A DNA stretch of 64,000 nt from Marsupella aquatica (GCA_973895155.1 OZ316891.1:22959884-23023883); one strand, 5' to 3'; numbered from the stretch's first letter, positions 37,471 to 64,000 are shown. Program-made: numbers and translations. The notes: generated from the sequence alone by a model not told the origin.

Positions 37471-40292
37471 GGCCTCCTCTGCATCCCTTAGCTCCCGCTT
37501 CCATTTCTCTCTTTCTTTGACTACGCCGGCCAACTCTCCTTGGGTCCGAGTCAGTTTATCCTTGATAATCTGATTGTCAGACTAAGCGGTATCCAACTGC
37601 CCCTGCATGATGTTTAGCTCATGCCGCTTAATCCGTAGCTCATCTTGGGCTTTCTTGGCCACCTGTAGGACTTCCACCTCAGCTTCCTTCTCCCTAAGCC
37701 GCCGAATGACCTCATCCTTCTTGCTTCTCTCCAAAGCCACCGCTTCTTCTAATCGGTGCTTCTCCAACATCTCCCTCTAGAAAAAGGGTCCCTGCTCCAA
37801 CTCCTCCCCAAAGATACTGAGCGCCAGGTCCCCACACATCTCCCCGTACTCCATGGCTCTATCCTTAGCATAGGTGGAGTAACTAGAAGTCATCGGCATC
37901 AACCACCGCGGCCTCTGCTCCCAAGCCGCCTTGCGGATTTCTTCTATGGTGGCAAGAGGGTTGCTTCTTTTTTTGGCAACCCGCCTGATGTCCTCCGGCC
38001 AATCTCCTCCTGGTAAATCCTTCTCCCTAGCTAGGGCTGCTTTCTCTTCCTCCCTAAGTCGCTCCTGAAATTCTTGTGCCGTCTGCTTTATGCCGTCAAA
38101 GCTTGGGGGAGCAATCTCTGGTGGGGGAGACTCGGGGCTACTCTGTTGAGTGGGGTCCCCTCGAACTACTCTTGGAAGCGTGGGGATAAATTGGCCACAG
38201 GTCCTTACTCCTGGAACATGATGATCCGACCCATAGCCGGAGTTATCATTGTTGTAGTCCTCCACCGCCTCCTCCACTACTTGGACTCCCGGCTTCTCCC
38301 TTTGTTCCCCTGGTCAGTCGTGAAAATGGCCTCTGGTTCCTCTGGTTTCCAGGCTGTTGTCTCCCTCTGCTCTCCGCGGGAAGGAGCCTTTAGGCTGCTC
38401 TACCTCTGATTTGGGGCTTGAGGCTCCCACATACATTCGCACTCCCGGCTTGTGTTCTGGCCTCCTGGTCTCCTTGGCTCCGGTAAAGGGGTCTTCCCCT
38501 CTGAGTCGGCTTAGGCCGACCTCTGGGGGAGCGTCCTGTATCGGTGCCGTTGCCAAAACCGTTGCCGTTGCCGGAACCATTCTCTTTTCCTTCTCCAGCA
38601 ATTTCAGCAGATTTTGCATGCCTGGTTGCTGCATCGGCAAGTCTTCTTTCTTTGTCTGAAATACCTGCTCGATCGTTGGACTGTCGGGCTGGTTGGGCTT
38701 CTCTGGTGCCAGCCCTTGCTCTTCCCCTTCCTCCGGTGCCCTTGCCGATAGGGGAAGTATTGGGGCAAAGATTTTACTTTTGGCATACCGGCACAAGAGC
38801 GGCATGTGATAGCCAAGCCAGGACACGCTTCCCACGCCGATTACCTATTGTATCTCCTTCAAGATCTTCTTCAGTTGGTTGAGGAGGTACCCGTTGTAAT
38901 CTCGGCTTGGGTCTGGCCTTTCTACCAGGTAGACCTGAGCCTTGCCGATCTCTGCCCTCGGCAAGTTACAGTGCATGGTCACCCACAAGAAATCGACCAT
39001 CTCTCCAATGTGCGGGTTGGTGCAGGTGTTCCGGAAGAAGCCATTCTTTGTTGATGGTCCTGGGAACGACCGGAACTCCTTGTCAGGTAAGGTCTTCCTA
39101 GTATCAACCTTGGTCTTATTACCCATCGGCAAGCCAAACACCTCAGCAATCACCCGGGGAGTGAGATAGAAATCCTTCCCATACACCCTCGTGGAATTGG
39201 TCTTGGGTTCCCATGATCCCACAAATTCTAATAAGTCTGAGTCCGGCACCTCTGGCTTCAACCATGGTAATCTTACGAAGGCTTCCAAGCCGGATTCGGC
39301 CATGAAGCCTTGGTACTTCTTGGTTTGCATGGCCGTAAAGCATGCATCCTCCTCCCGTGCAAAGTGTAATTGCACTTTCTCTCGTAGGGTCGCCACCCAG
39401 CCTTCCCAGGTGTCATCGTTTGTTGGAATGGCCTTGATGGGATCGACCTCTTCCTCTTTGGCATCTCCCCTTGTCCTGCTTTGCTGCTCTACTGGCTTCC
39501 TAGGTACCACGGACCTCGTTCTTTTTGCCAGGGTGGCCTTTTCGTTGTTGTTTCCTTTCCTCTTCATCTTGGCTGCCGTGGATGTTTCTCCTAGCAAGGT
39601 TGCCTTCGTCCACCCCTCCGTGTTACCCTTCAACTCCCAGTGTAGGTTGTTGCAGCAATTGATGGCTTCCCGGATGCCGACAATTCTGTTTTCGCAAAAC
39701 AGCAGGTCGTCAAGCTGATTGGCAGTAGGAGTCCACAAGAACTCGGCCTTGATAAGTTCTCCTCCTAAGAAAGCCGTCTTCTGCAGTTCCCAAAGCCAAG
39801 CAAGCTCCTGCCATTCTCGAGCTACTCTCTCTGATTCTTTGTCCTTGTAAGTCCTGACGTACTCACCTGCCCGTTTGAACAGGCATCCCCAAAAATGTGT
39901 CGCTTGATTGATGTTGCTCATACCCTCCTTGAGTCGATCGTTGGTATCTATTCCCACCCCGAGTGCTTGCCTAAGCAGCTAACAGTATTTGTCCTCCCGT
40001 AGTTGTCTGCCCAGTTGGTTCTTGCAAATGAGCCACTATTCCTCGCGAGCGGTCCTTACCCCTCTCCTCTGGTCTTCCCTTGTTGGTCACCCCTAGCCGT
40101 CGACGCTTAGCGCGCCCTAACCCTAATCATGTTCTCTCCCCCGGCGTCCTTACTTTCGGCCTCGGCTCGGGTTCCATAGTCACCCTTAATTGTTTATATT
40201 TTCCTTGTTTTGTTCCTATACTAAGGTGTTTCCAGGGTACACTCTTGCTTTACCATGTAAACCGGGCTAGTGATTCCTGGCTAGGCATCACA
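37471..40292 (-). mobile_element. Family A LTR, 5' part, with intact 370-aa N-terminal ORF piece (38845-39957)
   Basis: TG terminus at 40292 lies inside a CACTA exon. Interrupted at 37470 by another A LTR. Confidence 0.85.
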
Positions 40293-42722
40293 ATCGACCA
40301 GACACCATTGGAGACAAGATTACAGAAAAGGTAATGTTTTCCTCAACGCAATGTGAGAACAAGAAAGTCCAACTTTTAACGTTGCATTCTTTCAAACAAC
40401 GTCGTACATGACGTTGTAATTGATTACTTTACGTCGTCCATCTCACTTTACGTCTTTCCACCTAACGTTTTTTTTTGTTTTTACGTCGTATGGGATGCAA
40501 TAACTAATGTTCCATGGTACATCGTATGTAAGAAACGTCGTCCTCCACGATGTTAGTTTTAATAATACGTAGTGTGGAAGGACGTTTAGTGTGATTGTCG
40601 TTGAATTGACAATGTTACATTGGATCTGGCAGGTTTTTTGTTATTTCCCAATCACTCCCCAACTTCAGCATCTCTACCAACAAAAGCACTTATCCACACT
40701 ACAGACTTGGCATGTGGAGAACAAATCCCCACCAGGGATAATGCAATACCACCAAGATAGTCCAGCGTGGAAGCACATTGATGCCACTTGGCCAAATTTT
40801 GCCGAGGAGCCAAGAAATGTTTGTTTGGGGTTGGCAATTGATGGAGTGAACCCATATAAACAACGATGGAAGCCTAAGTCCATCTGGCCTATTCTTTTGA
40901 TAAATCAGAACATCCCTCCATGGTTGGCAATGAAGAAGGGTCATGTGCTTCTATTAGCTATAATTCCTGGACCCAAGGCCTGTAAGAATCCTGATATCTG
41001 TTTGGCTCCAGCTTATGAAGAGCTACATAATCTGTGGGAGGTTGGAGCAGTGACAACAGATGTCACTCGTGAAGTAGGCAATGGCAAGACCTTCAATATG
41101 AGGGTGATGATCACTCATTGCACCACAGATGGTCCAGGTAATTCATTGTGCAACCCAATGGCTATTGTTTGCACAATGTCATGTACAATGCAAGTGTTGG
41201 GGTTATTTGTGGTCTGAACATGGTTCAATGAAATGGCAGGTATGGGGACAATATCTGGCCTGAAGGTGGCAGGTTTTTCAGCTTGCCCTTCATGTGGCCC
41301 AGAGTTGCGTGGGAGGTACTCAAGACTACTGCACAAAACCACATATGAGGGCAGTAGGGTCCGGTTGGCAATGGATGACCACTTGCAACAAAACACAACA
41401 CATTGGGCAGAGACTGAAGTGCGGCCATGTCCTAATGGCCCTTCAGCTGAAGGACAAATTCAAATGGCAGAGAAGGTGGAAGCAAAGTTACTGAAACCCA
41501 AGGATTGTGGAGTAAACCGACGCTCAACTATGTGGGACTTGCCTTATTGGAGGGTAAGTGATAGAAGTGCATGGTTCCTTTACAGCAAATTAGACCAATA
41601 AAATGCTTAATTTAGAGATTGCAACTGATTCAATATGTTATTTCAATTTCCAGAGACTCCAGGTTCGATGGTTGTTGGACCCCATGCACATTGAAGTGAA
41701 TGTTGCTAAGAACTTGGTGAAGCACATTTATGGGATGAATGACACTCGTGGAGTCCGAGAGGATGCTGAGAGGGTTGGAGTAGTGAAGAGTTGTTGGATA
41801 ACACGTACTGGGGAGAAACCTCCTGGTCCTTGGATTTTGCCAAGAGAGGTTTTGAAGGACATGAATGGGATGATAAGCGAGATGAAGTTCCCTAGCCATT
41901 ACGGAGCTGGTTTTCGTGGGTGCACTACAAGGAATGATCACATACCCCCAATAGGGTTGAAGTCTCATGATTATCACAAGTTGATACAACATGTGCTACC
42001 AGCAGTCTTGCGTTGTTGTGATGATTCCCGGGAGCGTCGTTTACTCCGTCTGACTATATCTGAGATGTGCTCTATTTTCAGGTACGATAACGTACCCTCT
42101 CTTCCATTGCTCTCTTGCAAGTTCTTGTTACCGCTGGAGGAGCCCTGTAATTCAACAAGTATTTCAAACTCATTTTTCTATGGCCCTATGTGGATCTGAT
42201 ATACAAAATCTTTGATGGTTTTGAGGAGGAACATAGGTGGGTATGCGCTAAGGAGATAAAGGAGTCTGAGATTCCTTTGATGAGGGAGAGGTCAGCTCGC
42301 GTGATGTGCAATATGGAGAAGGTGTTTCCCACATGCATATTTGACATGCAATTGCATTTACTATGTCACTTGGTGGATGAGGTCGCGATTGCTAGTCCTG
42401 TCCATGCACGTTGGATGTATTGGGTAGAGCGCTTGAAAGTGCTCAAGTCCATGGTGCGTCAACCAGCTCGACCAGAGGGAAGTATGGCAACGGGGTATAT
42501 CATGTCGGAGTGCCTCTTTTATTCTGGAGGGATGATAGGGAGTTTGGACACAGAAGCTCCCATAGCTTGGGAAGAGGCACAAGATGATGACAATGGTGGG
42601 TTGCGTTTGATGGGTGCATCAAAAAAGTGTTCACTACATGACAACATACTTCGCCTACAGATCCACAATTATGTGTTGGGAAATCGCCCAGAGATGTCTC
42701 AGTGGAGGGAGTTGCATAGGTA
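40293..42722 (+). pseudogene. CACTA/En-Spm transposase (Tnp2/Transposase_21 plus DUF4218), spliced, truncated
   Basis: YFPITPQLQHLY, DSPAWKH, LAIDGVNP, SIWPI, IIPGPK, TDGPG, ACPSC, LDPMHIEVNV, GLKSHDYH, WMYWVER and RPEGSMA. In-frame GT-AG introns at 40331-40632 and 41138-41239, and near 41553-41652. Confidence 0.9.
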
Positions 42723-43199
42723 CATATATGCAACTCTATATATATGTTAATCTAACAGTAGACGTTGTTCTACATTCTATATGTGTAGAAGTTAGAGTGG
42801 GTTCAAGGAGCACTTCTTTGGATTGTGCAATATTCTCATCCAATCATATTTCAGTTTACAAGTTTCTATATATCGCGGATCGATGGCACTGGTCGTAATT
42901 GGCTTTTGTGTCGTCTTCAATGGCCAGTTTCTATGTTGAGGCCTGAACCCTAATCTGTCCCATAAACTTCAAATGAATGTCGCCTAGGGAAATTAACGTT
43001 GTGAAGCTCAGCCGCTTCTCGAAAAGCCATCACGGTGACGTACATGGGAGCCATATGATTGTTAGCTTAATCCCTGAACTCGCGGTCGACAGAGCTATGC
43101 ATTTTTCCAGGAGAAAATCAGCATCCAAGTTGTTGATGTAACAAGAGGATGGAAATGAGTCAAAAGCTGAAGTTGGACACGTTGTCGTTTTTTTTTTGG

Positions 43200-43375
43200 G
43201 GATTTTTTTTTGGTCCGCCCATCTCGGCGAGGTCAGCCAAGATTGAATCAACCTCGGGTGCCCAGCTGAGATGAGCGGAAGTTTGAAGGCCCCATCTCAA
43301 CTCCTCAACTGAGATTCTAAAATTTTTGAGATAACTGATATCAGTTATCAGCCACTGATAACTGATGATGTTGTG
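43200..43375. mobile_element. Putative CACTA-like terminus with dyad motifs
   Basis: ATCTCGG-N9-CCAAGAT at 43221 plus two degenerate copies, a perfect 20-bp palindrome GATAACTGATATCAGTTATC at 43330, and the end ...TGTTGTG (CACAACA reversed). Confidence 0.35.
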
Positions 43376-44495: not shown

Positions 44496-47305
44496 TATAT
44501 AATTTTGCTACGATGCACGTGTAAGAATGAAGTTGGAAATCCAAGAAATATACCCTTCTCTGCTATTTTGTCGTTTAGGGCGACGACCAATCAAAAGTGG
44601 CCACGTGGGCCAACCCGTCAATAGACACTATAAAAGGACCACCGCCGATAAGTTTTTGACATCATTGTCCAGAGTAGATTTTTGGGAGTTGTGTTCTTGG
44701 AGCAACATTCTATCCGTTGAGCCATTCGTTTTCCCTGATTGAGGGAATAATGCAAAGCCCCATAGTGTCATGGATAGCCATGTCTCAATCAGACAAAGAT
44801 TCACCTTCAAGTTCAGTTGAATCCTCTCTGTCACACGATTGACATGGGTCTTAACACCAAAAACGTCACTATTGGGTGCCAAAACCATCTCCTTGTACCT
44901 GAGGATCACGAAGGGATACTGTGAAGGCCGATAAACACCAATTTATGCCCTTAACACCAGACTATCATAGCAAGACTCTATCACACATCACCCAAGCTCA
45001 ATCCCTAGGAACCAAGGTTGGGAATCAGATCCTGTGCTCATGATAGTTCTAGTGAGAAGGGGTCTTCATATCGGGCCCGTACACACAGGGCCTAGCGCTA
45101 TGGTGCGCATATGTCTATACGTATGCTTACTATCATAGGTATATTTCTACTCTGCCGCCAGAATGTACCCATAAACCAGTGACTCCTGATTGATTCCCGG
45201 CTTAGGGACTTCTAAGCCATTAATGCCCCACCACTTTGCCATTCCACTCTCAGCAATCAGAGTTGTGACAGTCCTCACCCAACCCACTTCAATGCACCCA
45301 GTACACCTCTAAGTGGTGCTGCTAGTCCCATCATACACTCAGATTGCCTCACACACACACACACATCCATGAGAGAAATGAGGCCTGAGAGGAAAACTCA
45401 ATTAGATTCAAAGATCTGCACAATAGTTCACTTAGAACACTTGATCCAAACAATAGGCCCAAAGGCTGTCTCCTCCAGATTACGACGTTGTCATGCCGAA
45501 AGATTTCAGCTCATGAATGGCTTTTATAGGGGATGATGGGCGAGGCCTCCCGGTTGGGTTGCGTGCATGCTGACTCGGAGGGGCTGCTTGGTTGGATGGA
45601 TTGAGGTTTGGTGATTGGGTGGCTCGTCGTCACCAGGTTTGGGTGAGTCACCAGGCTTGGAGTTTGGATGAGCCTTGCTGATGGCAACTAGCTCAAGCTG
45701 GATGGTTGGGTTTCCGATGCTATTTAAGACTTGAGCCTCGGCTCATTGAGGTTGGCGGTTGTCTATTGAGATCTGTTGAGTTGCATTCTGTGAGTTTTGC
45801 TCCGTTTTGCGAAACTTGACTATTGTGCGGCGGTTTTGGAGTTCAGGGCAAGTGTTGGATCCAGGTGTGGAGTTTTCGATCCAGACGGGGATTTCTCAAG
45901 TTTGGAGTCTCGTTGATCTAGGCAGGGAATTTCTCAAGTTTGGAGTCTCCTTGATCCAGGCGAGGATTTCTTGAGTTTGGAGCCTCGTTGGTCCAGGCTT
46001 GAGTTTCGTGTGAGCTGTTTTAGACTAGTGGAGTAGCTAGTTGAGTTTTGGTTTTGTGAGCTAAGGAGGATAGTTTTTCCATCAGATTTTGAGTAGTTAG
46101 TCACTCGAGGAGTTCTACGCGACAAGTTAGAGGTAGCGGCCCGCCGTAGGGCCAGCTACCAGACTCTTGCGGGCAAGCTTACTCAAGGGCACCTATTGTA
46201 ACCTTTGTGAGAAAAGTAAAAAATATAAAGGAGTGAGAGTTTACTCCAAAAAGTGCTTGTTGCCTATCCCAATTGCAGCCAGAAATGCGTAGTTTGCCCG
46301 AGGAGCCCCTAACTTTAAGTCCTCGCGACATTGGCGACCATACTAGGGAGTCCTTGGGGCGATTGGATGAGATGGGTGACTATGACAAAGTCGGTCGGAT
46401 CTCAAGCATCGTCATGTCGATGACGAGAACCATAAGGAAGGAAGAGCTTGAGTCGGAAAGGGCAAACAGGGAAGCAAATAGAACTACTCGGTCGGGTACT
46501 TGGTGTCTCCAAGAGGTTCTGAAGGAGAATGGGCAGTTTGATGGGAGAAATGTGACAAGCTACCTTAAGTCTTACTTGACAAAAGCAATTGTCTACAAGT
46601 TGGACGAAGGGACGGCCGTGAAAGAGTTCATGGTGCTGGTTGAGAAGGAGTTGAGTTCAACGGTGCGGACCATCGTTGAGTCAGCTGAGGGCTGGGATGA
46701 CTTCGACTAGAAGATGAAAGAGAAGTTCCAAGCGGAGGATGCTGATCGGGTCACGCAGGCTACCTTCTTGGATTGGGTGAATGACAGGAACAATAAGCTG
46801 AAGGGACCGCAAGAGCTCCTAAGGGAGTTCAAGAGAAGGGTGTCTCAGTTACCAAAGCGAGATGTGGGAATCATCGAGTTGCAGCGCTCGACGCTCTTCT
46901 GGAGGGCAGCCGATGAGGACCTTCGAGAGGAGCTTGAGAACGCGATGGAGCTGCTGGAACCTTCGAGAGTTACCTTGTCTAACGACTGGAACCAAGTTGA
47001 GAAAGCGGTGTTGAAAGTGAGCAATCGACACCGGCGACGAAAGCTAGACAAGGAGGCTACCACTCTTGACCTAAGGCCGTCGGAACCGATATTGAGGAAA
47101 GGGAAGCGAGAACCAGCGAAGGATGAGATCAAACCATCGGTGGATGATCTCGCAAAAATGATGCAGAACCTGAAGATCTTGGCGGCACATGCGGTCGAGA
47201 ATCCGAAACCGAGGGTTGCGAGTGCTCCCAAGAGAAAGCGAGAAATGCAGAGTTGGCCATGCATGTGGTGCGATAGCAAGGAGCATGACCAACGGGAGTG
47301 TCTAG

Positions 47306-49984
47306 TGTGATGTCGATGACATGGTCCTTATTCTATAATCTGAGTAACTAGGTTGCTGTATGCAAGGAGTAGCTATTGATACCGTATAAACATTAGCAAG
47401 CTGGCAAGAATAAGGGCAATCATGGCATTAAGAGTAGGGATAAAGGTATTTCAGCTTGAAGACTGCACAACCAAGGCAAACACAGTTGAGGTAGTCATTG
47501 TCAAGGCCACAAAGGAGAAACTGGGGAAGAGAGGAGGAAGCGAGTCTCCATAGGTGAAGCTCTGTGGTATGGTGATTGTTCTCATGATAAAATCTGAATG
47601 TCTTGGGTGTGTAGCTTCATTTTGTTATTTGGGTTAGTGGTTCATAGTCTAGTCTTAGAATGCATGTTAGGGAAATAAAAGCTATGCTACGGGTGGTCGG
47701 TGACCATATCTCTTTCAATACGTCACCAAATCCGGATCTCTAAAGAGCATTGGAAAGATCTGGTCAAGGCGAGTAAAATCGATATAAAACACTTGGGAAA
47801 CGGAGCTGTATTAAGGAAAATATGGCCTGATTAGTGTGACAGGTTAACTTGTGGCCGAAATTAGCGGATTCGGTTGCGGTTTCGGGTTAACCTAAGCTCA
47901 GCCACGGCTTAGCTTATGTGAGCACGACTTTAGCTTAGCTCATGTAAGCATGGCTTCAGCTTAGCTCATGTAAGCACGGCTTCAGCTTAGCTCAGGTCAC
48001 CACAGCTTCAGCTTAGGCTTAACCCGGGTTCGGATTAGATTGATCCTGGGTTAGACTGAACTCGGGTTAGCCTAAACTCGGGCTTGGGTTAGCATAGGTA
48101 AGTTCGGGTTTGGGCTCAACTTAGCCTAGGTTAGCAGATAGCAGGTAGCGGTCTAACCCGAGACCACGGGTTAGCTCTACTCGGGTTAGATAGGATAGCT
48201 AGGTTAGCCAAACTCGGGTTAGCTATGTAACTCAGGTTAGCATAGTAGTGAGTACCCCCTCTCGGTTATGGGGACATAACTTTTTGTGTATTTGACCAAA
48301 TTGGCTATAATTGACCTCGTTGGAAAGAGGAGCTCAAGCCGCTTCCAACGCTGCTATCCACGCAGCAAATGGTTGAATAGAGAAATTGGGAGAGGAGGCG
48401 CAAGCTCGCAAAAACCATGGAGGAGGGCCAAATCCGAAGAACATAGCCAATTCGAGATAGAAATAAAGTTGCGAGTTAGGGTTCATAGTTAGAGATAGTG
48501 GTGGCTCTGTTAGGGCTGGGATGGGGCTCCAGCAGCTTAGTATCCACCCATTTGGGCTCAATATGAGAGTATATAGAGCAGCCCCCAGTAGAGGCAAGGG
48601 GGGGGACTTCAGTTGTGTGATCCCACGTAGACTGAGCAGCAGGGAGGAGCTCTATGCAAGGAAGGTTGGGCTTGGAAGCTGTGTGCTGGGGAGAGCTTGG
48701 TTGTGCTATTACTCAGGGAGTAATCAGCCACGCTTCATAGCAACAGTTGGCCAGGTTTGCAAGCTGGATTGTGGCTCTTTCTAGTAGGCAACACAATTGG
48801 GTTCTTTTCCCCCAATACAGAGCCTTGGTGATAGGTGATGTGTTGGTGATTGTAAACTGTGGGGAGGATTTCAATGTGATTTGCGGTGAGCACATTAGGA
48901 AGGCTGAGACACTAATTGAGGGGCAGCAAGAGGAGCATTTACAGTTGAGTTTGCAAGGCTACGTGATCCATGGGGAGTCCCGGCCTTTGTCTGGTAGAGA
49001 GCACTAAGGGATTTATGGCCAGAGTTGAGCTTGCAGGGCAAGCGTGAGGCCGGGCCTCATTGCAGTCTAGGATAGATCATCGTTAGGCCTGGTACCAACT
49101 TTGAAGTCAAGTCAACTGTGCATGCGTAACTTGACGTTCTAAATTGGAGGTGTGAGATCTGTATGTGCCCCCAAGAATGAAGTGCAGTGAAGGAGGTTGA
49201 GTTTAGGATTGAGTTTGCAAGGCAAGTACGGGATTGGTTAGAGTCCAATCTACCGTCACAATCTAGAGTGAGTCGGGCTCAGGTTCAGGATTGAGCTTGC
49301 ATGGCAAGCATGGGGCTTGCGGGGCAAGCACGTCGCAATCGGGAGGAGACAGCTTTGGGCCTAGTGTTCAGATCAAGTGTTCTCAGTGAACTATTGTGCA
49401 CATATTTGAATCTAATTGAGTTTTCTTCTCAAGCCTCATTTCTCTCATGGATGTGTGTGTGTGTGTGAGGCAATTTGAGTGTATGATGGGACCAGCAGCG
49501 CCACTGAGAGGTGTACCGGGTGCATTGAAGTGGGTTGGGCGAGGGCTGTCATAGCTCTGATTGCTGAGAGTGGAATGGCAGAGTGGTGGGGCAATGGCTT
49601 AGAAGTCCCTAAGCCAAGAATCAGTCAGGAGTCACTGGTTTATGGGTACATTCCAGTGGCAGAATAGAAATATACCTATGATAGTAAGCATGCGTATAGA
49701 CATATGCGCACTGTAGCGCTAGGCCCTGTGTGTATGGGCCCGATATGAAGACCCCTTCTCACCAGAATTATCATGAGCACAGGATCTGATTCCCAACCTT
49801 GGTTCTTAGGGATTGAGCTTGGGTGATGTGTGACGGAGTCTTGCTATGATAGTCTGGTGTTAAGGGCATAAACTGGTGTTTACCAGCCTTCACAACATCC
49901 CTTCATGATCCTCAGGTACAAGGAGATGGTTTTGGCACCCATAGTGACGTTTTTGGTGTTAAGACCCATGTCAATCGCGTGACA
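47306..49984 (+). mobile_element. Family B solo LTR, 2,679 bp (true orientation not established)
   Basis: TGTGATG...CGTGACA termini. Flanks TCTAG/CCTGG are a 5-bp TSD with two transitions. It interrupts gag, which resumes after 49984. Confidence 0.85.
47880..48245. repeat. Short-unit repeats within LTR B (~25-bp CTTAGCTCATGTAAGCACGGCTTCAG-like units and many GGGTTAG words)
   Basis: Visible directly; partly mirrored at 54105-54297. Confidence 0.7.
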
Positions 49985-52900: not shown

Positions 52901-54606
52901 AAAAATATAAAGGAGTGAGAGTTTGCTCCAAAAAGTGCTTGTCGCCTGTCCCAATCGCAGCCAGAAACGCGCAGTTTTCCAGAGGAGCCCCTAACTTTAA
53001 GTCCTCGTGACAACGTGCTTGCCTTGCAAACCTCGTGCTTGCCATGCAAGCTCAATCCTAAACCTGAGCCCGGCTCACTCCAGATTGCGACGGCAGATTG
53101 GACTCGAACCAATCCCATACTTGCCTTGCAAACTCAATCCTGAACTCAACCTCCTTCACTGCACTTCATTCTTGGGGGCACGCACAGATCTCACACCTCT
53201 ATTTCAGAATGTCAAGTTACGCATGCACAGTTGACTCGACTTCAAAGCTAGTACCAGGCCAAATGGCAATCTACCCCAGACTATAATGAGGCCCAGGCTC
53301 ATGCTTGCCCTACAAGCTCAGCTCTGGCCATAAATCCCTTAGTGCTCTCTACCAGACAAAGGCCGGGACTCCCCATGGATCACGTAGCCTTGCCAGACTG
53401 AATTGTAAATGCTCCTCCTGCTGCCCCTCAATTAGTGTCTCAGCCTTCCTAATGTGCTCACCGCAAATTGAATTGAAATCCTCCCCACAGTTTACAATCA
53501 CCAACACTTCACCTATCACCAAGGCTCTATATCGGGGGAAAAGAACCCAGTTGTGTTGCCTACTAGAAAGAGCCACAATCTAGCTTGCAAACCTGGCCAA
53601 CTGTTGCTGTGAAGCGTGGCTGATTGCTCCCTGAGTAATAGCACAACCAAGCTCTCCCCAACACACAGCTTCCAAGCCCAGCCTTCCTTGCACAGAGCTC
53701 CTCCCTGCTGCTCAGTCTATGTGAGATCACACAACTGAAGTCCCCCCCCCCCTTTGCCTCTATCGGGGGCTGCTCTATATACTCTCATACTGAGCCCAAA
53801 TGGGTGGATACAACGTTGCTGGAGCCCCATCCCAGCCCTAACAGAGCCGCTACTATCTCTAACTACTGAACCCTAACTCGCAACTTTATTTCTATCTCGA
53901 ATTGGCTATGTACTTCGGATTTGGCCCTCCTCCATGGTTTTTGCGAGCTTGCGCCTCCTCTCTCAATTTCTCTATTCAACCATTTGCTGTGTGGATAGCA
54001 GCGTTGGAAGCGGCTTGAGCTCCTCTTTCCAACGAGGTCAATTATAGCCAATGTGGGCCAATACAAAGAAAATTATGCCCCCGCAACCGAGAGGGGGTAC
54101 TCATTGCTATGCTAACCCGAGTTACATAGCTAACCCAAGTTTGGCTAACCTAGCTATCCTATCTAACCCGAGTAGAGCTAACCCGTGGTCTCGGGTTAGG
54201 CCGCTACCTGCTATCTGCTAACCTAGGCTTAGCTGAGCCCAAACCCAAGCTTATCTATGCTAACCCGTGCCCAAGTTTAGGCTAACCCGAGTTCAGTTTA
54301 CCCGACAAATTTGAGAGTTTTCCTTTTTCTCTCTTGTACATAGCGAGGCACTATTTCTTCATGATAGGTATCAGTAGCGTAGCACGGAAGGGTTAACTTC
54401 TCCGGCGAGAAATATGCCGAAGCTTCCTCCCACGCGAGCTTGACAAGCCGTCTGTCCTGGCTGTCCCATTCCGTTGTAGCTGACTCGATAGTCCTGTCGG
54501 GAACTGCTACTAAGTTATACTTAAATTCAATCAAATAATGTATTGCGCCCAAAATAGACGTAAACAAGAAGGCATCTGTCGGGGAAGGTAGTCGACATGG
54601 ATCGAT

Positions 54607-55490
54607 GGATCTCGGAGAGGCCAGCCGAGATCACTCTTCTTGAGACGGATCTCGTAGAGGCCAGCCGAGATGACTATTCCTGAGACGGATCTCAGAGAGG
54701 CCAGCCAAGATTGACTATTCCTGAGACAGATCTTGGAGACGCCAGCCGAGATGACTCTTTGGTACATGGATCTCGGAGAGGCTAGCCGAGATGACTCTTC
54801 GGTACACGGATCTCGGAGAGGCCAGCCGAGATCACTCTTCCTGAGACGGATCTCGTAGAGGCCAGCCGAGATGACTATTCCTGAGACGGATCTCAGAGAG
54901 GCCAGCCGAGATTGACTATTCCTGAGACAGATCTTGGAGACGCCAGCCGAGATGACTCTTCGGTACACGGATCTCAGAGAGGCTAGCCGAGATGACTGTT
55001 CCTGAGACGGATCTCAAAGAGGCCAGCCAAGATTGACTCTTCCTAAGACGGATCTTGGAGAGGCCAGCCAAGATCACTCTTCCTGAGATGGATCTCGGAG
55101 AGGCCAGCCAAGATGACTATTCCCGAGACGGATCTCAGAGAGGCCAGCCGAGATGACTATTCCTGAGACGGATCTCAGAGAGGCCAGCCGAGATTGACTC
55201 TTCCTAAGACGGATCTTGGAGAGGCCAGCCGAGATCACTCTTCCTGAGATGGATCTCGGAGAGGCCAACCGAGATGACTATTCCGGAGACGGATCTCAGA
55301 GAGGCCAGCCGAGATTGACTCTTCCTACAACGGATCTTGGATAGGCCAGCCAAGATCACTCTTCCTGAGATGGATCTCGGAGAGGCCAGCCGAGATGACT
55401 ATTCCTGAGACGGATCTCAAAGAGGCCAGCCGAGATTAACTCTTCCTGAGACGGATCTTGGAGAGGCCAGCCGAGATCACTCTTCCTGAG
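54607..55490. repeat. Intronic tandem array, 22 x 40-41 bp, one dyad motif per unit
   Basis: Unit GGATCTCGGAGAGGCCAGCCGAGAT(C/G)ACTCTTCCTGAGAC, with a 121-bp trimer higher-order period in the distal part. Confidence 0.95.
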
Positions 55491-57377
55491 TTGCATGTAG
55501 AGGAATGAATCTTGGCAAGGTCCACCAACATGCATCTCAAGTTAGGACTTGCCCTCGCTTGTAGAGGAGGCCAGACACTATGAATGTCAGCGAGGTCAGC
55601 CGACATGCATACATATCGGCGATGCCGCTGACTTGTATCCCTCTATTGTCAACCATTGCGACGAGCAAGCAAATATGAAATGAACAACGTCAAACGCCAG
55701 AAAACTTACATGTCGTTGGGAGTACTACCGGCTTTTTCTTCTTGCGCTTTTCTGGATTGGCTTTTGAACAGACCACCTCTTCCTCCTCCGGGGAGATCAC
55801 TCCAACCAGTTGTGCCAGTTGGTCTTGCGCACAAGTTCCGAAGTGAGGATAGGATTCAGTCCCAAACACCATCCGCCCACAATTTTCACCCGCCTTGAAT
55901 ATTGCCCCAAACTGTGCGTTGAAAGTGAGGATAGTTGCCCTAGGGTGTGTTGTATATTCGATGATACATTGGAGCGTTGCTGGCGACAATGTGCCCGCAA
56001 AAGGATCGTTAACCTGATTCTTCTTGGATGTATAGTTCGTTAGCCCATTCCTACTCTTCATATCGAGCTCTGCACTAATTGGTGCCACAACGTCCTTTGG
56101 GCATATCTCCACAATAGATTGAAACCCCCACAGGTCTAGCTTGAGATATTCGCTCTGGATCGGCCAAACATATTCAGAGGTCAGACTTCCTCAGTTTAGG
56201 ATAGTAAGTCATTGGAATAAAAAATAAATGAAGAAGTAGGTAATTGATGGGACTTACTCGCTTCCCAGTCCTACCATCGTAGGTGGGTGTGTCGTTCCAG
56301 ATAAAGAAGCTTTCTTTCAACCCCCAGTTGGTATTCTCGTAAACTAATGCATCATAAATGCAAGTTGAGTGCCGAAGCGAACCACTGTGCATGATGGCAA
56401 ACAGTCCTTCGGAATCAAGGACATCTCGAGCAAACTCCTGAACCCGGTTCAAGTCGTCCTCCTGGAACAAATTCCACAACGGGGTGGACTTACCCTCGAC
56501 CATACGCGTGTCTGTTCCCATATGTATCAGAATTAAATCTGCACCAGTCTTCACTCGCTTCCCCCCTTTTCTCCAGGCATTTTGACGCAAACCTTCCCGC
56601 AATAGCTTTCTGCACCATGAGATCAATTTACTAACTACAGGGGGTTCGGTACCTTCTTTAGCCGCATCAAAAAAAGTTGTAAATAGATTTGGAGACCACC
56701 TAAAATACATATGTCTGCTCTGGGAAGACATGGTATTGGCATAAGGACGCCTTACTCCTTTCAGCTCTGTGTTATCCTCTTCTCCAAGGGCCTCTTCATC
56801 CTCCTCATTTTCCAATGTGGGGTCAGGTTGGATGGTTGTGGGCGGAACCTCTCCAGTGCCGGGCGGGGGAGGCGACTCAGTGGGGGAAGGAAGAGGAGGA
56901 AATTCCTTGTCACGTGCTTTGCTTGGGCTCCCTTTGGGAGCTCTGGGTCGCCTAGTTTGCTTTCTTTTTAAGGCCTTTTCCTTTTGCCATGACAGTAATG
57001 GTGGCCGGTAAGGCACAGGAGAGATATCAGACAAGCGCCCTTTGTCTCCGGATTGTCCTTTGTCCTCTTCCTCTCGCTCCTCTTCCTCTTGCTCACCCAC
57101 ATCATCCTCACCTTGCTGCTCGTCAGCCAATTCATCTTGTACTTCAGGAGCCTCATGCGGAGGCAAGTCAAATTCTTGCAGTGGAGCCTCGTCTGGACCC
57201 AACTCAACTATTGGTTGTTTATCCTTGTGCCCTGGACCCTGCGAAACCCCTGGACCGTCCTCAACTGCTGCCTTTGTAGCCGGCTCTACACCCTTGCTCT
57301 TGATAGAATCAGGTTCCGTTTGGATCTCTGCATGACCTGCATAGGATGCAAATTGATGAGCTTCATGATGGCAACTG

Positions 57378-57555
57378 CATCTCGGCGAGCCTCGCCAAGA
57401 TCGGGTTCATTATATGCAAGCAACTTATTACTCAACTAATACTTCATCTCGGCGAGCCTCGCCGACATCTGGACTGGACCAGACACTTAATCTCGGAGAG
57501 CCTCGCCGACATCTGGACTGGACCAGACACTTAATCTCGGCGAGGCTCGCCAACC
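57378..57555. repeat. Four dyad motifs and a ~44-bp duplication inside intron 57337-57613
   Basis: ATCTCGG-CGAGCCTCG-CC(G/A)A(G/C)AT repeated. Confidence 0.8.
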
Positions 57556-60500
57556 CAGCCAAGGTTTTTTCCAATGCAAGCCACCACCTGATTCGAAAGG
57601 AATTGAGTAATACCTGATGGGGTCTTTGTTGGAGTGCTTATAGAATCTGACTGACTGGCCTTGGCGGATTGTTCCTTGTCGACCTTCTTCTCGCCTCCTT
57701 CCTTTCAGGCCTTTTTCCCATTATAGGCTGGGTCCATTGGGATTATGGCCTCCAACGCTATTGCCTAGGGCATAGAGTCCGTCAATTGTCGCAGCTTGGA
57801 TATATCGTAGTAATTTGTAGGCTCCTGTTGGTCCTTCAGCTTCATTGCACACTCCTTCTCAGCGTCATCGATAAAAGTATTCCAGTCACGGTATTCCATA
57901 TACCATGCGCAGTTTTGACGTTCCCAATCGTAGACTACTCTGCCATTAGGAATTTGGCCATCACATGGATACATGCTAAGGCTCCCTTTCGGCTCCATCC
58001 AAGATGTGAGTGCCCATGGCAGCTCTTTCAATACGGATGCATTCATGTTCTCCTGATTGATTAGAAATCTTGTCACGCACCTCTTTGTTCGCTTTTTCCA
58101 CAATTCTTTTAACAAGACCGTGGCCTTTCCGTCAATCCAAATTTCCCCGCCTAGTTTCAGTGATTTCTCTTGCACATAAGCTCGATAAAGCCTTCTGTAT
58201 AGCTCTGCAAATTCCTCCTCTGTCCCAAAAACTCACGGTACATCTGTCTTTGGTAGGCCTTTGCAGCAAAATCGGTCAAAATCACACAACCAACGTGGTC
58301 AATGTAACACCACATTGACCAGACCGCTAACCAGGATCTAATTGCAGCATCACCATTGCTACGTGGATGGTGATACATACTCTTCTCCTCCTCCATTCCA
58401 AAATGAGCTTTCAATAGCTTTACTCTGCACTCTGCAGTTACCCAAGCCCCAGCAAACAAGCGGACCCTATCCAAGCCAACCTGTACATTCATCACACCCT
58501 GCTTGGCGTCCTTTGACAACTTGTGATACAGCTGCCGACATACCGGCATGAACTGGTCTCCATTGGCCGGATTCATGCAGGCCGCAAGCTTGGGGAACTT
58601 GTTGTCCCAGGCCTTGCATGCAACAATAATCATTGCCTCCGTCTCCTCCTCAGTTCTCTTCACACTCCACGGGTGCCCACGAGCTGCGTCTTGTGCCATC
58701 TCCTTGGAGATATTGATTCATCCCGCTTCAATGTTTGACCAAGACATGATGTACACAGCGGCTTCTTTTGTCATATTCTTCGAGTACCAAGTCTTCCCAT
58801 GTCCTCGATTTCGGGCCTTCATGAAAGCCTCCATTGTCTCCTTTGACATGAGCGAACTGTACTCCTCCAATGGAGTGTTCAATAGCTTTGCAACCCGATC
58901 AGCGTCATTAAACCAGGACGTCTTTACGACAGTCGCACTTATCCTAAAAATGACAAACAATACTCATAGCGGCAATTTCAGAGAGGCTCTCCAAGATGGC
59001 ACACAAGGTTTACACAAACGGGTAATCACATTTTGCAAAAAGACGCGAATGAGAGTACTTACGAGTTGAGAGCGTGCATTGCTTGCTCAACCTTCTTGAA
59101 TCTGTCCTTCCCAGCGTTCAAAAGAGAGAATCTGATGCACGGATGGTATTGCAATTGATCCGAATACTCAGAAGCAACTGCGGACCAGGCTGTGTATCTG
59201 TGGTTTCCATCAAAAACCCAAAACATTTTGTCCTTAAGGACTTTGAACTCCTCTGATGCATCGCACTCTTGCTCAAACTGTTCATTGAGCTGAGTCCATA
59301 GAGGGTCCCAAAATGGCTTGAAGTCTGTCACTGTCTGCGTTTCTCCAATTTCATTGAACTCAGTAATGTGGAACTCGCTGAGCTTCACAACATAGCCGCT
59401 CTCTTTGAATCCTTTTTTTAATTTTGCAACTGACTCATCCTGAAGATTCCTCACTGCCTTCATTGGCATGAGCCGGCACAAGGGGATCTGGGGCGGATCC
59501 TTACTAAAATTTGTCTCATACTTGGAGACAATAGACTCCCAGGCTCCCTTCTCAGCAATATCAGCCAATTCTACCGCTCCAATAGGCTCAAATGATATCT
59601 GCTTTGGCTCAAACTTCCTCCTAGAGTCAATTGACTCCATAAGTGGACCACCCTGTGAGCGCGTCAGTCAAGACGTGACTGGCTAAGGAGACTTGGATCG
59701 TGGTTTCTTACTCCGTTGAGAAGTTTGGTTGTCGGCAAGTCCAGCTCCAGTCGAGTCTTTCCTCTTCAGCATTTTGACCTTAGATTACATGAGAAATGAA
59801 AGAGTTATTACTCGGCAATAGCTCGACCTATAAACCTGACAAGATCTCAGCGAGCCTCGCCGAGGGAGCCAGTTTTCAAGGATATGCGGGGTCCAGCCTA
59901 TCACACATTTGATTCATCTACAAATGGATTTTACATATCAAGAAAAAGGGGGAGCCAAGAGAAAAACCTGAGAGAATCACCAACGTTCACGGCAAATCAC
60001 TGTCGCAAATGCTCACAAGAAAATGTTGCCTAAACGCTCACGGAGAAGCTACCACACGCTCACTGCCTCAAAACACCAACGCAATCCAGTAGACACGATA
60101 ACAGGGTTGCACAGGAGAGTTTACCGTGAGTGGGACGACTGAAGAAGAGCAGGAACAATGCAGATGTGAGCGCGGAGAAGTGAGAGATTGCACAAGACCA
60201 ATATGCAAAGATTGAGGAAGAGCGCGGATTAGAGCGCGAACGAGTAAGGGACGCAAAAGAGTGAGGCAGAGTGAGAAGGTCCCAGGATTAGTGATAAAGA
60301 CGAGCGCCAAACCTAAGGTGTCACACCGTGGAAGAGTGATGAGGAAGGAACGACATCCACTTCAAGGAATAACGTACCGCACGTACTGCACAACACTAAA
60401 GTACGCAATAGATACGGGAGATCCTAACTATATTTCGATACGTACATGTTAACGGCCCAAACAAGAAAGTACACAATGCTAACGCGAGTACTGACCACCA

Positions 60501-60790
60501 CTAGTACGAGAGAGTTTAGGGTACATTTAGGGTACAATTAGGGACTTTGGCCTACAACTCAAATGAGTCCAAATGTAGGAGACCCTTGCTGTCATTTCAT
60601 TCCGAGGCCTACTAAGACGTGTCAACATCTCAGTGCGTCAGCTCAAAGAGGAAATGGTTGCCCACATGCATTATCATTTGGGTGGCTTAACTAAAAGAGG
60701 AAATTGGGGTTAAGAGAAGGGGGAAGAGCACAAGTCAACAAGATCAAGGAGGGTTTGTTGGAGGAGACTTAATAAAGGCGGCCAATTATG

Positions 60791-60819
60791 TTTAGGGTTT
60801 AGGGGTTTAGGGTTTAGGG
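60791..60819 (+). repeat. Four TTTAGGG telomere-like (telo-box) units
   Basis: TTTAGGGTTTAGGGGTTTAGGGTTTAGGG. Confidence 0.8.
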
Positions 60820-60886
60820 TAAAATAGGCAAAGTAGAAAAAAGTCCAACACTCTAGTGAACTTCACGGTAGAAAAGTACGCTTCTT

Positions 60887-61905
60887 GGGTCAAAAAGGTC
60901 GCCAGCCTCTCGGAGACCCTCTCTGAGATGGAGTCGTGGGCCAGATGACACCACTTGTGGACCCTGTTAACAGTTTCAAAGGGTTAGCTACAACATACAC
61001 TGTGTCTCTTAGAGACCCTCTCCGAGATGAAATTAAGGGTATTCCGTTTCAAAGGAAGGACCCAAAATGGTTCTATCCAACATCCGATGTCAGAGACCCT
61101 CTCTGAGATGGAGTGGTGTGGCCCGAACGGCCAGACGACAAAAATTGTCAATCGTGTCTTGGGTGGAAAGGGAAGTGAGATTGCAACCCAATCGCTCGGA
61201 GACCCTCTCTGAGATGGAGCCGTGTGCCCCAAGTGGCCAGAGAGCAATTCTCCCAGATTGCATATTGGGTCAGAAAGGTCGCCAAATGAGACCCAGCCTC
61301 TCGGAGACCCTCTCTAAGATGGAGTCATGGGCGTACTTTGGCCAGATGACACCACTTGTGGACCCTGTTAACAGTTTCAAAGGGTTAGCTACAACATACA
61401 CTGTGTCTCTCAGAGACCCTCTCCGAGATGAAATTAAGGGTATTCCATTTCAAAGGGAGGACCCAAAATGGTTCTATCCAACATCCGATGTCAGAGACCC
61501 TCTCTGAGATGGAGTGGTGTGGCCCGAACGGCCAGACGACAAAAATTGTCAATCGCGTCTTGGGTGGAAAGGGAAGCAAGATTGCAACCCAATCGCTCGG
61601 AGACCCTCTCTGAGATGGAGCCGTGTGCCCCAAGTGGCCAAAGAGTAGTTCTCCCAGATCGCATATTGGGTCAGAAAGGTCACCAAATGAGACCCAGCCT
61701 CTTGGAGACCCTCTCTGAGATGGAGTCGTGGGCGTACTTTGGCCAGATGACACCACTTGTGGACCCTGTTAACAGTTTCAAAGGGTTAGCTACAACATAC
61801 ACTGTGTCTCTCAGAGACCCTCTCTGAGATGAAATTAAGGGTATTCCGTTTCAAATGAAGGACCCAAATTGGTTCTATCCCACATTCGATGTCAGACCCT
61901 CGCCA
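60887..61905. repeat. Tandem array, 401-bp unit x ~2.5, four dyad motifs per unit
   Basis: GCCAGATGACACCACTTG at 60940, 61341 and 61742. CTCGG-AGACCCTCT-CTGAGATG recurs within each unit. Confidence 0.92.
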
Positions 61906-62109
61906 AAATACAAGGATGAACCCAAAAGTGCATGCAAAAACTGACCGTACAGTACTTTTCAATGTTTTTACAATGTAATTTTGTATGGATCGCATGTCCG
62001 TACAAATCTACCATCTCAGAGAGGCTCGCCGAGTACAAATACTGTTGCCCAAATGACTCGAGTCCATCTCAGAGACCCCCACCGAGAATAATTTAGGGTG
62101 GAAACTAAA

Positions 62110-63087
62110 TGTCAAAGACCCTCGTCGAGTAGGATTCTAGGTAAAAGTAAATGACACTCAGCGACCGAGGAAGTCCCTAATCCACCACAGAGAGGCTCGC
62201 CAGATAGCACGACCGCATGTCAGAGACCCTCGCCAAGTAGGATTCTAGATAAAAGTCTATGAGAATCCATCTCAGAATCTCGGAGACCCCCGCCGAGAAT
62301 GACTTGGGATGAAAAGTAAATGACACTCAACGACCAAGGAAGTCCCTAATCCACCACAAAGAGGCTTGCCAGATAGCGCGACCGCATGTCAGACACCCTC
62401 GCTGAGTAGGATTCTAGGTAAAAGTCTATGAGAATCCATCTTAGAATCTCGGAGACCCCCGCCGAGAATGACTTGCGATGAAAAGTAAATGACACTCAGC
62501 GACCAAGGAAGTCCCTAATCCACCACAGAGAGGCTCGCTAGATAGCGCGACCGCATGTCAGACACCCTCGCCGAGTAGGATTCTAGATAAAAGTCTATGA
62601 GAATCCATCTCAGAATCTTGGAGACCCCCGCCGAGAATGACTTGGGATGAAAAGTAAATGACACTCAGCGACCAAGGAAGTCCCTAATCCACCACAGAGA
62701 GGCTTGCCAGATAGCGCGACCGCATGTCAGAGACCCTCGCCGAGTAGGATTCTAGATAAAAGTCTATGAGAATCCATCTCAGAATCTCGGAGACCCCCGC
62801 CGAGAATGACTTGGGATGAAAAGTAAATGACACTCAACGACCAAGGAAGTCCCTAATCCACCACAAAGAGGCTTGCCAGATAGCGCGACCGCATGTCAGA
62901 CACCCTCGCCGAGTAGGATTCTAGGTAAAAGTCTATGAGAATCCATCTTAGAATCTCAGAGATCCCCGTCGAGAATGACTTGGGATGAAAAGTAAATGAC
63001 ACTCAGCGACCAAGGAAGTCCCTAATCCACCACAAAGAGGCTCGCCAGATAGCGCGACCGCATGTCAGAGACCCTCGCCGAGTAGGA
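62110..63087. repeat. Tandem array, 169-bp unit x ~5.8, two to three dyad-like motifs per unit
   Basis: AAGTCCCTAATCC at 62171, 62340, 62509, 62678, 62847 and 63016. Motifs CTCGG-AGACCCCCG-CCGAG and GTCAG-AGACCCTCG-CCGAG. Confidence 0.95.
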
Positions 63088-63553
63088 AGTCGGAAGGCTA
63101 TTTATTCATCCTTCAAGTCAGGCATATTTGCAGAGGGGATTATAAGCCACACGACGGAAGAAGAAGAAATGTTTTAGGCAAGGCCGGACGGAATCTTGGA
63201 GAATATACTACATCCCCAGAGTTTGCATGTACCTCTTGGCGGCTGCTGGCAAATATGTACCTTGTACATGTGCAGAATCTGTACCTTCTTGGCGGCCGCT
63301 AGGAAATAGGTACCTTCTTTGTGGTACAATTGTTATATGTACGCTCCGGATTCTACGATCGTTATATGGTACGCACGTTGTCCGGAACGGTATTCTTGGC
63401 GTAAAGTACGGGTACTTTAACGTCTGATGTACCGCCCAAGTTCTAAGCCTGAAAGTGCGGTATTATTGGCATAAAGTGGTACCAAGACTTTAACGTCTGA
63501 TGTATAAAGCCGAAGGCCTGGGGACTAACATTCCCAGTGTGGATTTGGGACAC

Positions 63554-64000
63554 ATGGCTTCTCTTGTGATAATCCAATCAGTAACCGGGGATGTTGTTGT
63601 TTTTTGTCAGATTGAGGGAGACAGTGTTCGAGTCACTAAGGAGCATGAAGTAGCAAGCCGATTTGGTTTGAAGGTAGGGGATTTCATGATTTACGAGGAG
63701 AGAGAAGATGGGCTGTCCACTTTTGCTGAATCCAAAGGCGATGGAGATGAGCGAGAGTGGTATCTGAAATGTGGCATGTCCTATACTATCTGCAAAAAGA
63801 AAGCAAGTTCATGCAATGTTAGTGAGGGTCTTGGAGATTTTGCGCACTCCCCACAGGTTGATGAACCGGGTGAATTATGGAACAATACACCGTGTCAAAA
63901 ATTGTCCCAATTTTGGGAGGACATTCACCGAGTTGGTAGACCCCACTCAAATTTGTCGCGAGTGTGGCAGGATGTTGGAAAGGCAGATGAGCCAGTGAAG
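63554..64000 (+). CDS. Start of an unidentified ORF divergent from the ParB-MTase gene; open to the window end
   Basis: ATG at 63554, MASLVIIQSVTGDVVVFCQIEGDSVRVTKEHEVASRFGL..., 149 codons without a stop. Absent from the ORF track, presumably because its stop lies outside the window. Confidence 0.5.
   Translation, partial: MASLVIIQSVTGDVVVFCQIEGDSVRVTKEHEVASRFGLKVGDFMIYEEREDGLSTFAESKGDGDEREWYLKCGMSYTICKKKASSCNVSEGLGDFAHSPQVDEPGELWNNTPCQKLSQFWEDIHRVGRPHSNLSRVWQDVGKADEPVK

Follow-up and report, generated by a model that had tools for sequence, protein, structure and literature searches.

The sequence considered in the current work (hereafter the window) is a stretch of 64,000 nucleotides (nt) from Marsupella aquatica (GCA_973895155.1 OZ316891.1:22959884-23023883), which contains, on its minus strand, a decayed five-exon gene for a protein with a predicted ParB/Srx-fold domain and a methyltransferase-like C-terminus, surrounded by copies of a single long palindrome. 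A first-pass annotation of the window had placed this gene in a feature spanning 54298 to 63087, had counted about 50 copies of a spaced dyad around it (in introns, near the 5' end of the gene and in upstream arrays, though not in exons), and had presented gene and sites as a candidate new, transposon-borne system in which the protein recognizes its own sites. Both the gene and the arrays proved real, and 52 palindromes were counted between 54303 and 63100, although the repeated element to which they belong extends beyond 63087. Gene and palindromes (the latter located by a matrix scan, complemented by clustering for the 401-bp array) are arranged as follows.

54304..54506, minus strand: exon 5, ending at 54303 against an unrelated repeat block where other copies run on differently (spliced model)
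54607..55490, no strand: 40-bp tandem array of intron 4, 22 units with one palindrome per unit
55583..55607, no strand: solo palindrome in intron 4, with a TGTC variant in both arms
55710..56154, minus strand: exon 4, encoding the remainder of the methyltransferase-like domain (translation, profile alignment)
56258..57336, minus strand: exon 3, acidic/proline-rich linker followed by the first half of the methyltransferase-like domain (translation, tblastn)
57378..57557, no strand: four palindromes in intron 2, partly as a 44-bp tandem repeat
57614..58943, minus strand: exon 2, conserved middle region with no fold assignment (tblastn, about 31% identity to Riccia homologs)
58974..58998, no strand: single palindrome of intron 1; in homologous loci L001 and L002 the corresponding intron holds two copies and one copy, respectively
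59063..59772, minus strand: exon 1, with start codon, basic N-terminal tail and ParB/Srx-fold domain (about 59500-59063, including DGNHR; translation, fold, conservation)
59843..59867, no strand: palindrome that precedes the start codon by about 70 bp, corresponding to the copy annotated near the 5' end of the gene
60885..61901, no strand: array of 2.4 tandem units of 401 bp, holding 10 palindromes that fall into four different flank contexts
62012..62089, no strand: two solo palindromes
62108..63087, no strand: array of 5.6 tandem units of 169 bp, holding 11 palindromes

The five exons (59772-54304) are separated by four GT-AG introns with in-frame joins, as established by translation and by tblastn with 12 long homologs. 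The spliced model is 1256 amino acids (aa) long and contains one frameshift as well as five premature stops; against a profile built from 12 Riccia proteins it scores an E-value (E) of 2.8e-118. Two of the stops (59685 and 59670) are located in the basic tail encoded by exon 1 and three (58720, 57767 and 57707) in exon 2, which also carries the 1-nt frameshift (58226/58227), a change absent from most other copies as represented by contigs of public runs. The gene is furthermore cut off at 54303, loose contig ends being present at 54297/54303 in two public runs, and the window copy is decayed, as the annotation had supposed. An apparent first intron (59713-59655) was rejected, as the frame reads through it and the homologs start likewise. 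The conserved middle region of about 430 residues has no Pfam match.

The ParB/Srx signature, annotated from its motif, is present in the translation of exon 1 as DGNHRYTA, and the assignment of the fold to this exon was supported by a structure model and by two structural comparisons. The model, built with 87 of the 150 relatives listed, reached a predicted local distance difference test (pLDDT) value of 92. When compared using VIA-align, its top eight rows were KorB, PadC, sulfiredoxins, SerK, ParB-N, Atu1540 and SbnI (Z 7.3-4.8), with Z values of 7.3 for KorB (90 residues, 2.6 Å), 6.9 for PadC, and 5.9 for both sulfiredoxin and SerK. Foldseek ranked first a B. subtilis-type ParB with cytidine diphosphate (E 0.031, probability 0.99), its top rows being ParB, Noc and Srx, and in a viral structure library most of the top named rows were ParB-like proteins or proteins of DNA sulfur modification (best E 0.009). 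A sequence search of the domain against solved structures found nothing; the fold is assigned because the structural matches are consistent, the individual scores being moderate. Among 88 aligned sequences, residues G145, N146, H147 and R148 are kept in 83, 87, 82 and 76, respectively, the motif reading DGNHR in 59 and EGNHR in 11, and conservation extends to a VR further upstream and to a final Asn. Judged by this conservation, the GNHR region would represent the GxxR-type nucleotide-binding motif of the ParB/Srx superfamily; its counterpart in ParB we take to be GERR, an equivalence based on sequence pattern. The closest profile is DGQHR (E 0.001, far under its cut-off), with a weak match in two close relatives. 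A predicted homodimer of residues 130-560 of relative P0024 obtained a score of 0.00, with an uncertain fold of the partner.

The C-terminal domain, annotated as methyltransferase-like, was modelled on a Riccia homolog (P0154; mean pLDDT 52.6), and residues 931-1143 of the window model align to the methyltransferase-domain profile of the family. In VIA-align the top 11 rows for P0154 are all beta-class enzymes (Z 13.8-10.6), including CcrM (Z 13.8; 179 residues, 4.3 Å), MboIIA (13.5) and the rotifer N4CMT (11.8), Foldseek matched beta-class methyltransferases with an E of 2.3e-9, and a sequence search against solved structures returned one weak methylase row. The C-terminus is thus predicted to adopt the fold of a beta-class N6-adenine/N4-cytosine (N6A/N4C) methyltransferase in permuted form, with the catalytic motif ahead of the S-adenosylmethionine (SAM) motif. 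At the catalytic position the window reads HMGT (about 56510-56540) instead of the canonical (D/N/S)PP(Y/F/W), and the Riccia members DLPT, DMPT, DLPS or DMPS, the canonical form being present in none of the 22 sequences that cover this position. At the SAM-binding position the window reads TFNAQFG (about 55906-55935) rather than a D-x-F-x-G-x-G-type motif, whereas Riccia members retain a DFAGGWG-like motif. PF01555 is matched by six of seven Riccia proteins with scores under the curated cut-off (19.9-26.2 versus 26.7). On the basis of these motifs, the methylase fold of the window gene is likely inactive; the same may apply to other copies of its subfamily, for which 40 of the 985 recorded differences were covered.

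These findings bear on the possibility, raised in the first-pass annotation, that the protein marks its own element, i.e. that it binds the site and acts there as an active N4-methylcytosine (4mC) or N6-methyladenine (6mA) methyltransferase. The beta-class fold and its motif order, the SAM motif retained in Riccia and the aromatic residue of one fern member (DVPF) are in line with such an activity; enzymes of the same class that generate 4mC work in Marchantia (10.1101/2021.02.12.428880), and self-marking has already been put forward for algal proteins (PMC12477816). Self-marking is nonetheless weakened by the loss of the catalytic motif in the window gene and is considered improbable, in view of the missing canonical motif in all covering sequences, the Pfam scores under cut-off, and several substitutions at both window motifs, which exceed what recent decay is likely to yield. 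Fern-type members of the family (P0035, P0146 and P0139) carry DVPF, DFPT or DFPI at the catalytic position, and some branches may therefore be closer to active enzymes than that of the window. In P0055, from Adiantum capillus-veneris, a family member is fused to a C-terminal NIF/FCP1-like phosphatase domain, which suggests either an exchange of effector domains behind the ParB fold or a fusion of gene models. MpDN4MT1 was rejected as closest kin; it contains a TSPPY motif, and the accessible text of its description makes no mention of ParB (10.1101/2021.02.12.428880).

The palindrome was delimited from the annotated dyad, of which nine exact matches (CTCGG-N9-CCGAG) are present in the 64-kb window against 0.05 expected, eight of them within 54298-63087; with at most one mismatch, 31 of 33 window matches fall within this feature. 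A scan of spacers from 0 to 20 detected enrichment at a spacer of 9 alone (31 matches, versus 0-3 for each of the others). The annotated spacing was thereby upheld. The nine letters of the spacer are conserved as well and half-palindromic, so that what had been annotated as a spaced dyad is a continuous palindrome of 23 bp, with the consensus ATCTCGG(A/C)GAG-S-CTC(T/G)CCGAGAT (symmetrised weight matrix, 22 distinct copies). At a matrix score of at least 12, 53 sites were found in the 64 kb versus 0 in ten simulated windows, the matrix being circular for the window's own copies and non-circular for exons and other loci. The 52 sites in 54303-63100 are divided into 28 intronic, 24 upstream and 0 exonic ones, the remaining site being located at 43220. 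The exons (3767 bp) are therefore devoid of sites, with a best score of -2.5, as compared with the 28 sites in 1702 bp of introns; of the latter, three out of four carry at least one palindrome, the exception to the annotated placement being the 103-nt intron 56257-56155.

The raw copy count is inflated by tandem duplication, and clustering of the 52 copies by their flanks yielded 18 contexts, or 16 once two array edges are merged. The probability that all seven in-gene contexts are intronic is 2.8e-4, or about 1e-3 with the array edge merged (hand calculation). An explanation of the palindrome as a structure (an intronic RNA hairpin or a DNA cruciform) or as a passive product of tandem duplication can draw on the 36 of 52 copies that repeat an already counted flank context and on the 43 copies that reside in three large arrays. 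It is nevertheless very improbable, since there are 16-18 unrelated flank contexts, the spacing is fixed, 24 copies are situated upstream of the gene, and identical letters, not just pairing, are found across elements that are 50% diverged in protein. Moreover, among 20 non-redundant sites a change in one arm is mirrored in the opposite arm in just 6 of 44 cases, a rarity that fits the reading of half-sites and argues against a hairpin or base pairing.

A CG-to-TG or CG-to-CA change is present in 53 of the 104 arms, a pattern compatible with host methylation and deamination, and a TGTC variant in 13 of them as well as in L002. Host transcription factors recognize comparable cores, the ARF-like site being an inverted repeat of TGTCGG and the DREB-like core being GCCGAC. 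That the palindrome is such a host site, gathered by the element as an enhancer, accords with the TGTC variant and with dense GTAC clusters beside the arrays, which suggest that the element does gather host sites. However, the consensus reads TCTCGG and not TGTCGG, its 23 bp with a fixed centre exceed the length of these host sites, and no palindrome was found in 40 kb of other window repeats (best score 5.9), so that a host factor is regarded as a poor candidate, with a low probability. The GTAC clusters are located at 60300-60600, 61900-62060 and 63200-63520 (25-37 per kb versus 2.5 per kb window-wide), adjoining the palindrome arrays and close to where the two divergent genes likely have their promoters; GTAC we take to be the SBP-box/SPL core. 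Taken as a whole, the palindrome has very probably been kept by selection for a protein that reads its sequence.

Relatives of the gene were sought by means of a HMMER scan, which yielded 224 among 1.84 billion representatives, at least one of them being false (P0114, with Rib repeats), whereas a word-indexed search with the ParB exon recovered none of 236 longer candidates. The species was looked up for 29 relatives in a selection biased to long sequences; Riccia sorocarpa accounts for 11 of them and Adiantum for 8, the other 10 having no species, and with a full-length Riccia protein as query all 24 long matches, many of them partial, originated from that one liverwort genome. The ParB-methylase family is expanded in this liverwort (Riccia) and in two ferns (Adiantum). 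Neither relatives nor motif matches were found in viral contigs and prokaryote genomes; judging from its relatives, the gene likely belongs to a non-seed land plant. The Atlas leads for the Riccia protein, all below 0.9, were a streptophyte cluster without a name and fungal DUF3723 clusters.

A metagenome scan for homologous loci retained 4 loci out of 56 candidates and allowed the distribution of the palindrome to be compared with that of the gene. L001 (48% protein identity) carries two palindromes (scores 34.1 and 31.5) and L002 (51%) one (score 21.8), in each case in the intron following the ParB exon, the position of which is the same in L001, L002 and the window. Once stripped of their sites, the introns of these three loci exhibit no similarity above that of shuffled sequences (p 0.72-0.77). 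The co-occurrence of gene and motif anticipated by the annotation thus holds for both close loci and for neither of the two distant ones, in which no evident different dyad takes its place.

With regard to the element itself, contigs from four public runs cover the locus, no RNA run being among those listed as containing it, and in two of the four the summed depth amounts to hundreds to thousands in all 30 bins of 54250-64000; contig depth does not equal copy number, the same two runs containing 1744 and 2200 variant-bearing contigs. The locus is a highly repeated, likely mobile element. Several contigs diverge from the window at 54303, the sequence that follows there in other copies being absent from the window, and the repeated element runs on beyond 63087 as far as the window end. 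Its left end is thus lost at 54303 and its right end lies beyond 64000; from the continuous cover between 54303 and the window end, the element is longer than 9.7 kb, with neither end in view. The transposon-borne nature proposed in the annotation is in agreement with the high copy number, though the element could be linked to neither a transposase nor a terminal repeat; it is nonetheless probably a DNA transposon. Further features of the neighbourhood are the following.

40260..42836 (fragment 40573-42747), plus strand: truncated, intron-containing CACTA transposase gene (Transposase_21, DUF4218; domain match)
44829..45488 and 49984..49330, inverted: duplication in the repeat block (self-comparison)
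48049..49333 and 54303..53013, inverted: duplication in the repeat block (self-comparison)
63503..63799, plus strand: divergent coding stretch, likely belonging to the repeated element of the gene (98 aa aligned to P0177 at 65% identity)

The coding stretch at 63503..63799 has no Pfam, NCBIfam or PDB match, and a B3-like fold suggested for it by eye (a small beta-barrel) was unsupported by profile and structure searches; a weak palindrome (score 9.4) is located just behind it, at 63815. The span of the CACTA fragment contains no palindrome (best score -4.6), and no CACTA terminus was seen in the window. The fragment could not be linked to the element, as no contig bridges both and 42837-43158 is of low depth. 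Behind the fragment, in a separate high-depth repeat, the strong palindrome at 43220 is accompanied by a second one whose centre is one base short (43220-43273), both possibly representing a remnant or a non-autonomous relative.

These neighbours are relevant to the alternative that a different protein encoded by the element recognizes the palindrome (either the DNA-binding domain of its transposase, in a TnpA-like role, or the product of the gene at 63503 onwards), the ParB-methylase gene being co-cargo with another function. Transposases and TnpA are sequence-specific regulators that act on clustered motifs (PMC2613891; 10.64898/2026.08.24.746577), the same repeat contains another conserved coding stretch that is followed by a weak site, about 400 bp separate the CACTA transposase fragment from the strong site behind it at 43220, and conservation of the whole element would equally keep the site in homologous introns. 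Conversely, the CACTA fragment itself is without a site and is separated from 43220 by the low-depth stretch. TnpA binding and hypomethylation occur at termini, and TnpA-like proteins are, within the accessible text, seemingly restricted to flowering plants (10.64898/2026.08.24.746577), whereas here the sites fill internal introns; in addition, the ParB accessory genes of red algae adjoin inverted-repeat arrays and move between transposon superfamilies (10.1101/2025.02.11.637652). A reader other than the ParB-fold protein is therefore deemed rather unlikely.

The preferred explanation is that the locus represents a decayed accessory gene of a high-copy element of DNA-transposon type, the palindromes of which would be the binding sites of its own ParB-fold protein. 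Since the palindrome is retained in the corresponding intron of related elements, it is likely the landing site of the protein. The ParB-fold protein itself, as a dimer on two half-sites, is moderately favoured as the reader, while the chances that by this binding it acts as a VANC/TnpA-like self-regulator of its element are about even. The bound protein would regulate the chromatin or transcription of the element instead of methylating it: the ParB/Srx domain may bind a nucleotide, i.e. cytidine triphosphate (CTP) as in ParB or adenosine triphosphate as in sulfiredoxin, in order to load, clamp or oligomerise, and the dead methylase fold may grip or protect DNA. Tandem amplification of site-bearing units would raise local occupancy, as in VANDAL, with a family-specific shelter from host silencing as net effect, as with VANC and TnpA. 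A more far-reaching version, speculative and unlikely, is a ParB/parS-style clamp in liverwort- and fern-type transposons, where a nucleotide-gated dimer would load at the 23-bp intronic palindrome and spread, and the dead methylase would shield DNA from 5-methylcytosine silencing. If true, eukaryotic chromatin would have its first parS-like system of loading and spreading, and transposon superfamilies would be exchanging a conserved module for anti-silencing.

Several observations weigh against binding of the palindrome by the ParB-fold protein. The Z-scores for the ParB/Srx fold are below 8, no Foldseek row attains an E of 0.001 or better, Pfam ParB models match none of the 88 family members, and, the nearest profile being DGQHR, the nucleotide need not be CTP. 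The middle region is without any assigned DNA-binding domain, and the methylase model is that of a Riccia protein at a pLDDT of 52.6, to which the window domain is linked through a profile alone. The co-occurrence of gene and palindrome is derived from two short metagenome contigs and implies linkage to the element family, not to the ParB protein specifically; L003 (35% identity, with only about 60 nt of intron covered) and L004 (32%) contain neither the palindrome nor an evident alternative dyad. Finally, the strong site at 43220 is located 11 kb outside the element, within another repeat, a second gene with no family assignment is present in the same element, and neither a transposase, nor a terminal repeat, nor a target-site duplication was found for the element within the window.

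The designation of the locus as a new system had to be withdrawn, as two comparable cases, including the self-binding hypothesis, were reported in 2025. One is the accessory gene of Sola1-1_Ec32 in Ectocarpus, which encodes a 1104-aa fusion of ParB and an N4C/N6A methyltransferase, for which self-binding and modification of its own element were proposed (PMC12477816). The present gene resembles it in this fusion and in its similar length (about 1200-1260 aa), a likeness of architecture, but belongs to a land plant rather than a brown alga and has eroded methylase motifs. For the Ectocarpus protein, the text consulted names no binding motif and does not address the catalytic state, and at the present locus no transposase is linked to the gene. 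The other is PAG3 of Plavaka elements in Bostrychia, which has a ParB-like N-terminus and adjoins tandem inverted repeats, and for which self-binding was likewise stated; its cassette is mobile between transposon families, and most of its copies are decayed (10.1101/2025.02.11.637652). As at the present locus, inverted-repeat arrays are found beside a ParB-like gene, yet in PAG3 the ParB domain is fused to a 2-oxoglutarate oxygenase, the methylase being separate (PAG2), whereas here ParB and methylase are fused and the repeats are also intronic. The novelty lies in a branch from land plants, in a methylase that is likely dead, and in a site that is both defined and conserved. Within a literature search of mainly openly accessible main texts, no account of the family in liverwort or fern transposons was found. 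Iyer 2011 is reportedly a source of green-algal examples and may already mention plant members.

VANC-type proteins are defined by the domains DUF1985/DUF287, and no VANC-type Pfam family was found in the window exons or in 22 long matches. In layout, the window system is most like VANDAL/VANC, yet it is not a VANC. VANC, the product of an accessory gene separate from the VANDAL transposase, recognizes short motifs located in introns and in tandem repeats between genes (PMC5735166), and in both systems the motif is confined to non-coding, tandem-amplified DNA of the element. The VANC motifs, however, are 8-9 bp long, non-palindromic and fast-changing between families, in contrast to a palindrome of 23 bp that has persisted through 50% divergence of the protein; the proteins are unrelated, and the function of VANC has been shown, whereas binding of the palindrome is predicted. 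TnpA of Spm/CACTA requires dense motif clusters and causes hypomethylation (10.64898/2026.08.24.746577); if self-reading holds, the present system would share with it clustered, family-specific motifs and an element-encoded regulator, although TnpA is a transposase-derived protein with tandem helix-turn-helix domains that acts at termini in flowering plants, and no such domain was detected here. The present gene differs from bacterial ParB in being a eukaryotic spliced gene with GNHR instead of GERR, a middle region of about 430 residues and eroded methylase motifs, while the ParB/Srx fold, a GxxR motif, a long palindrome and a link to a methylase are shared with bacterial ParB-parS (PDB 6sdk, 8qa8) and with phage loci that combine ParB and a beta-class methylase. 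ParB-linked methylases of phages, chlorophytes and chytrids have been described, which are not of the window's family (PMC4738411).

Algal ParB accessory genes having been flagged in two 2025 genome papers as possible self-binding epigenetic regulators (PMC12477816; 10.1101/2025.02.11.637652), the present locus extends such genes to land plants and supplies an exact 23-bp site, with evidence that its conservation does not depend on the flanks. It also provides a subfamily with a dead-looking methylase, which separates 'marking' from 'binding'. Should ParB-type loading operate on plant chromatin, it would explain how a single protein protects a multi-kilobase element and would provide a new sequence-specific anti-silencing tool.

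Elsewhere in the window, short TTTAGGG telomere-like runs, presumably telobox-like, are present about 1 kb upstream of the gene (60790-60820 and 60515-60543). The region from 44829 to 54303 is a rearranged repeat block with direct duplications and inverted pairs; its appearance (44830-54303) is retrotransposon-like by eye, with Pfam matches in 0 of 5 open reading frames (ORFs) tested. Direct and inverted copies of a coiled-coil-rich ORF pair surround Ty3-like gag/pol remnants at 17398-40000 and 324-2426, and a reverse transcriptase of the long interspersed nuclear element type is located at 11113-12723.

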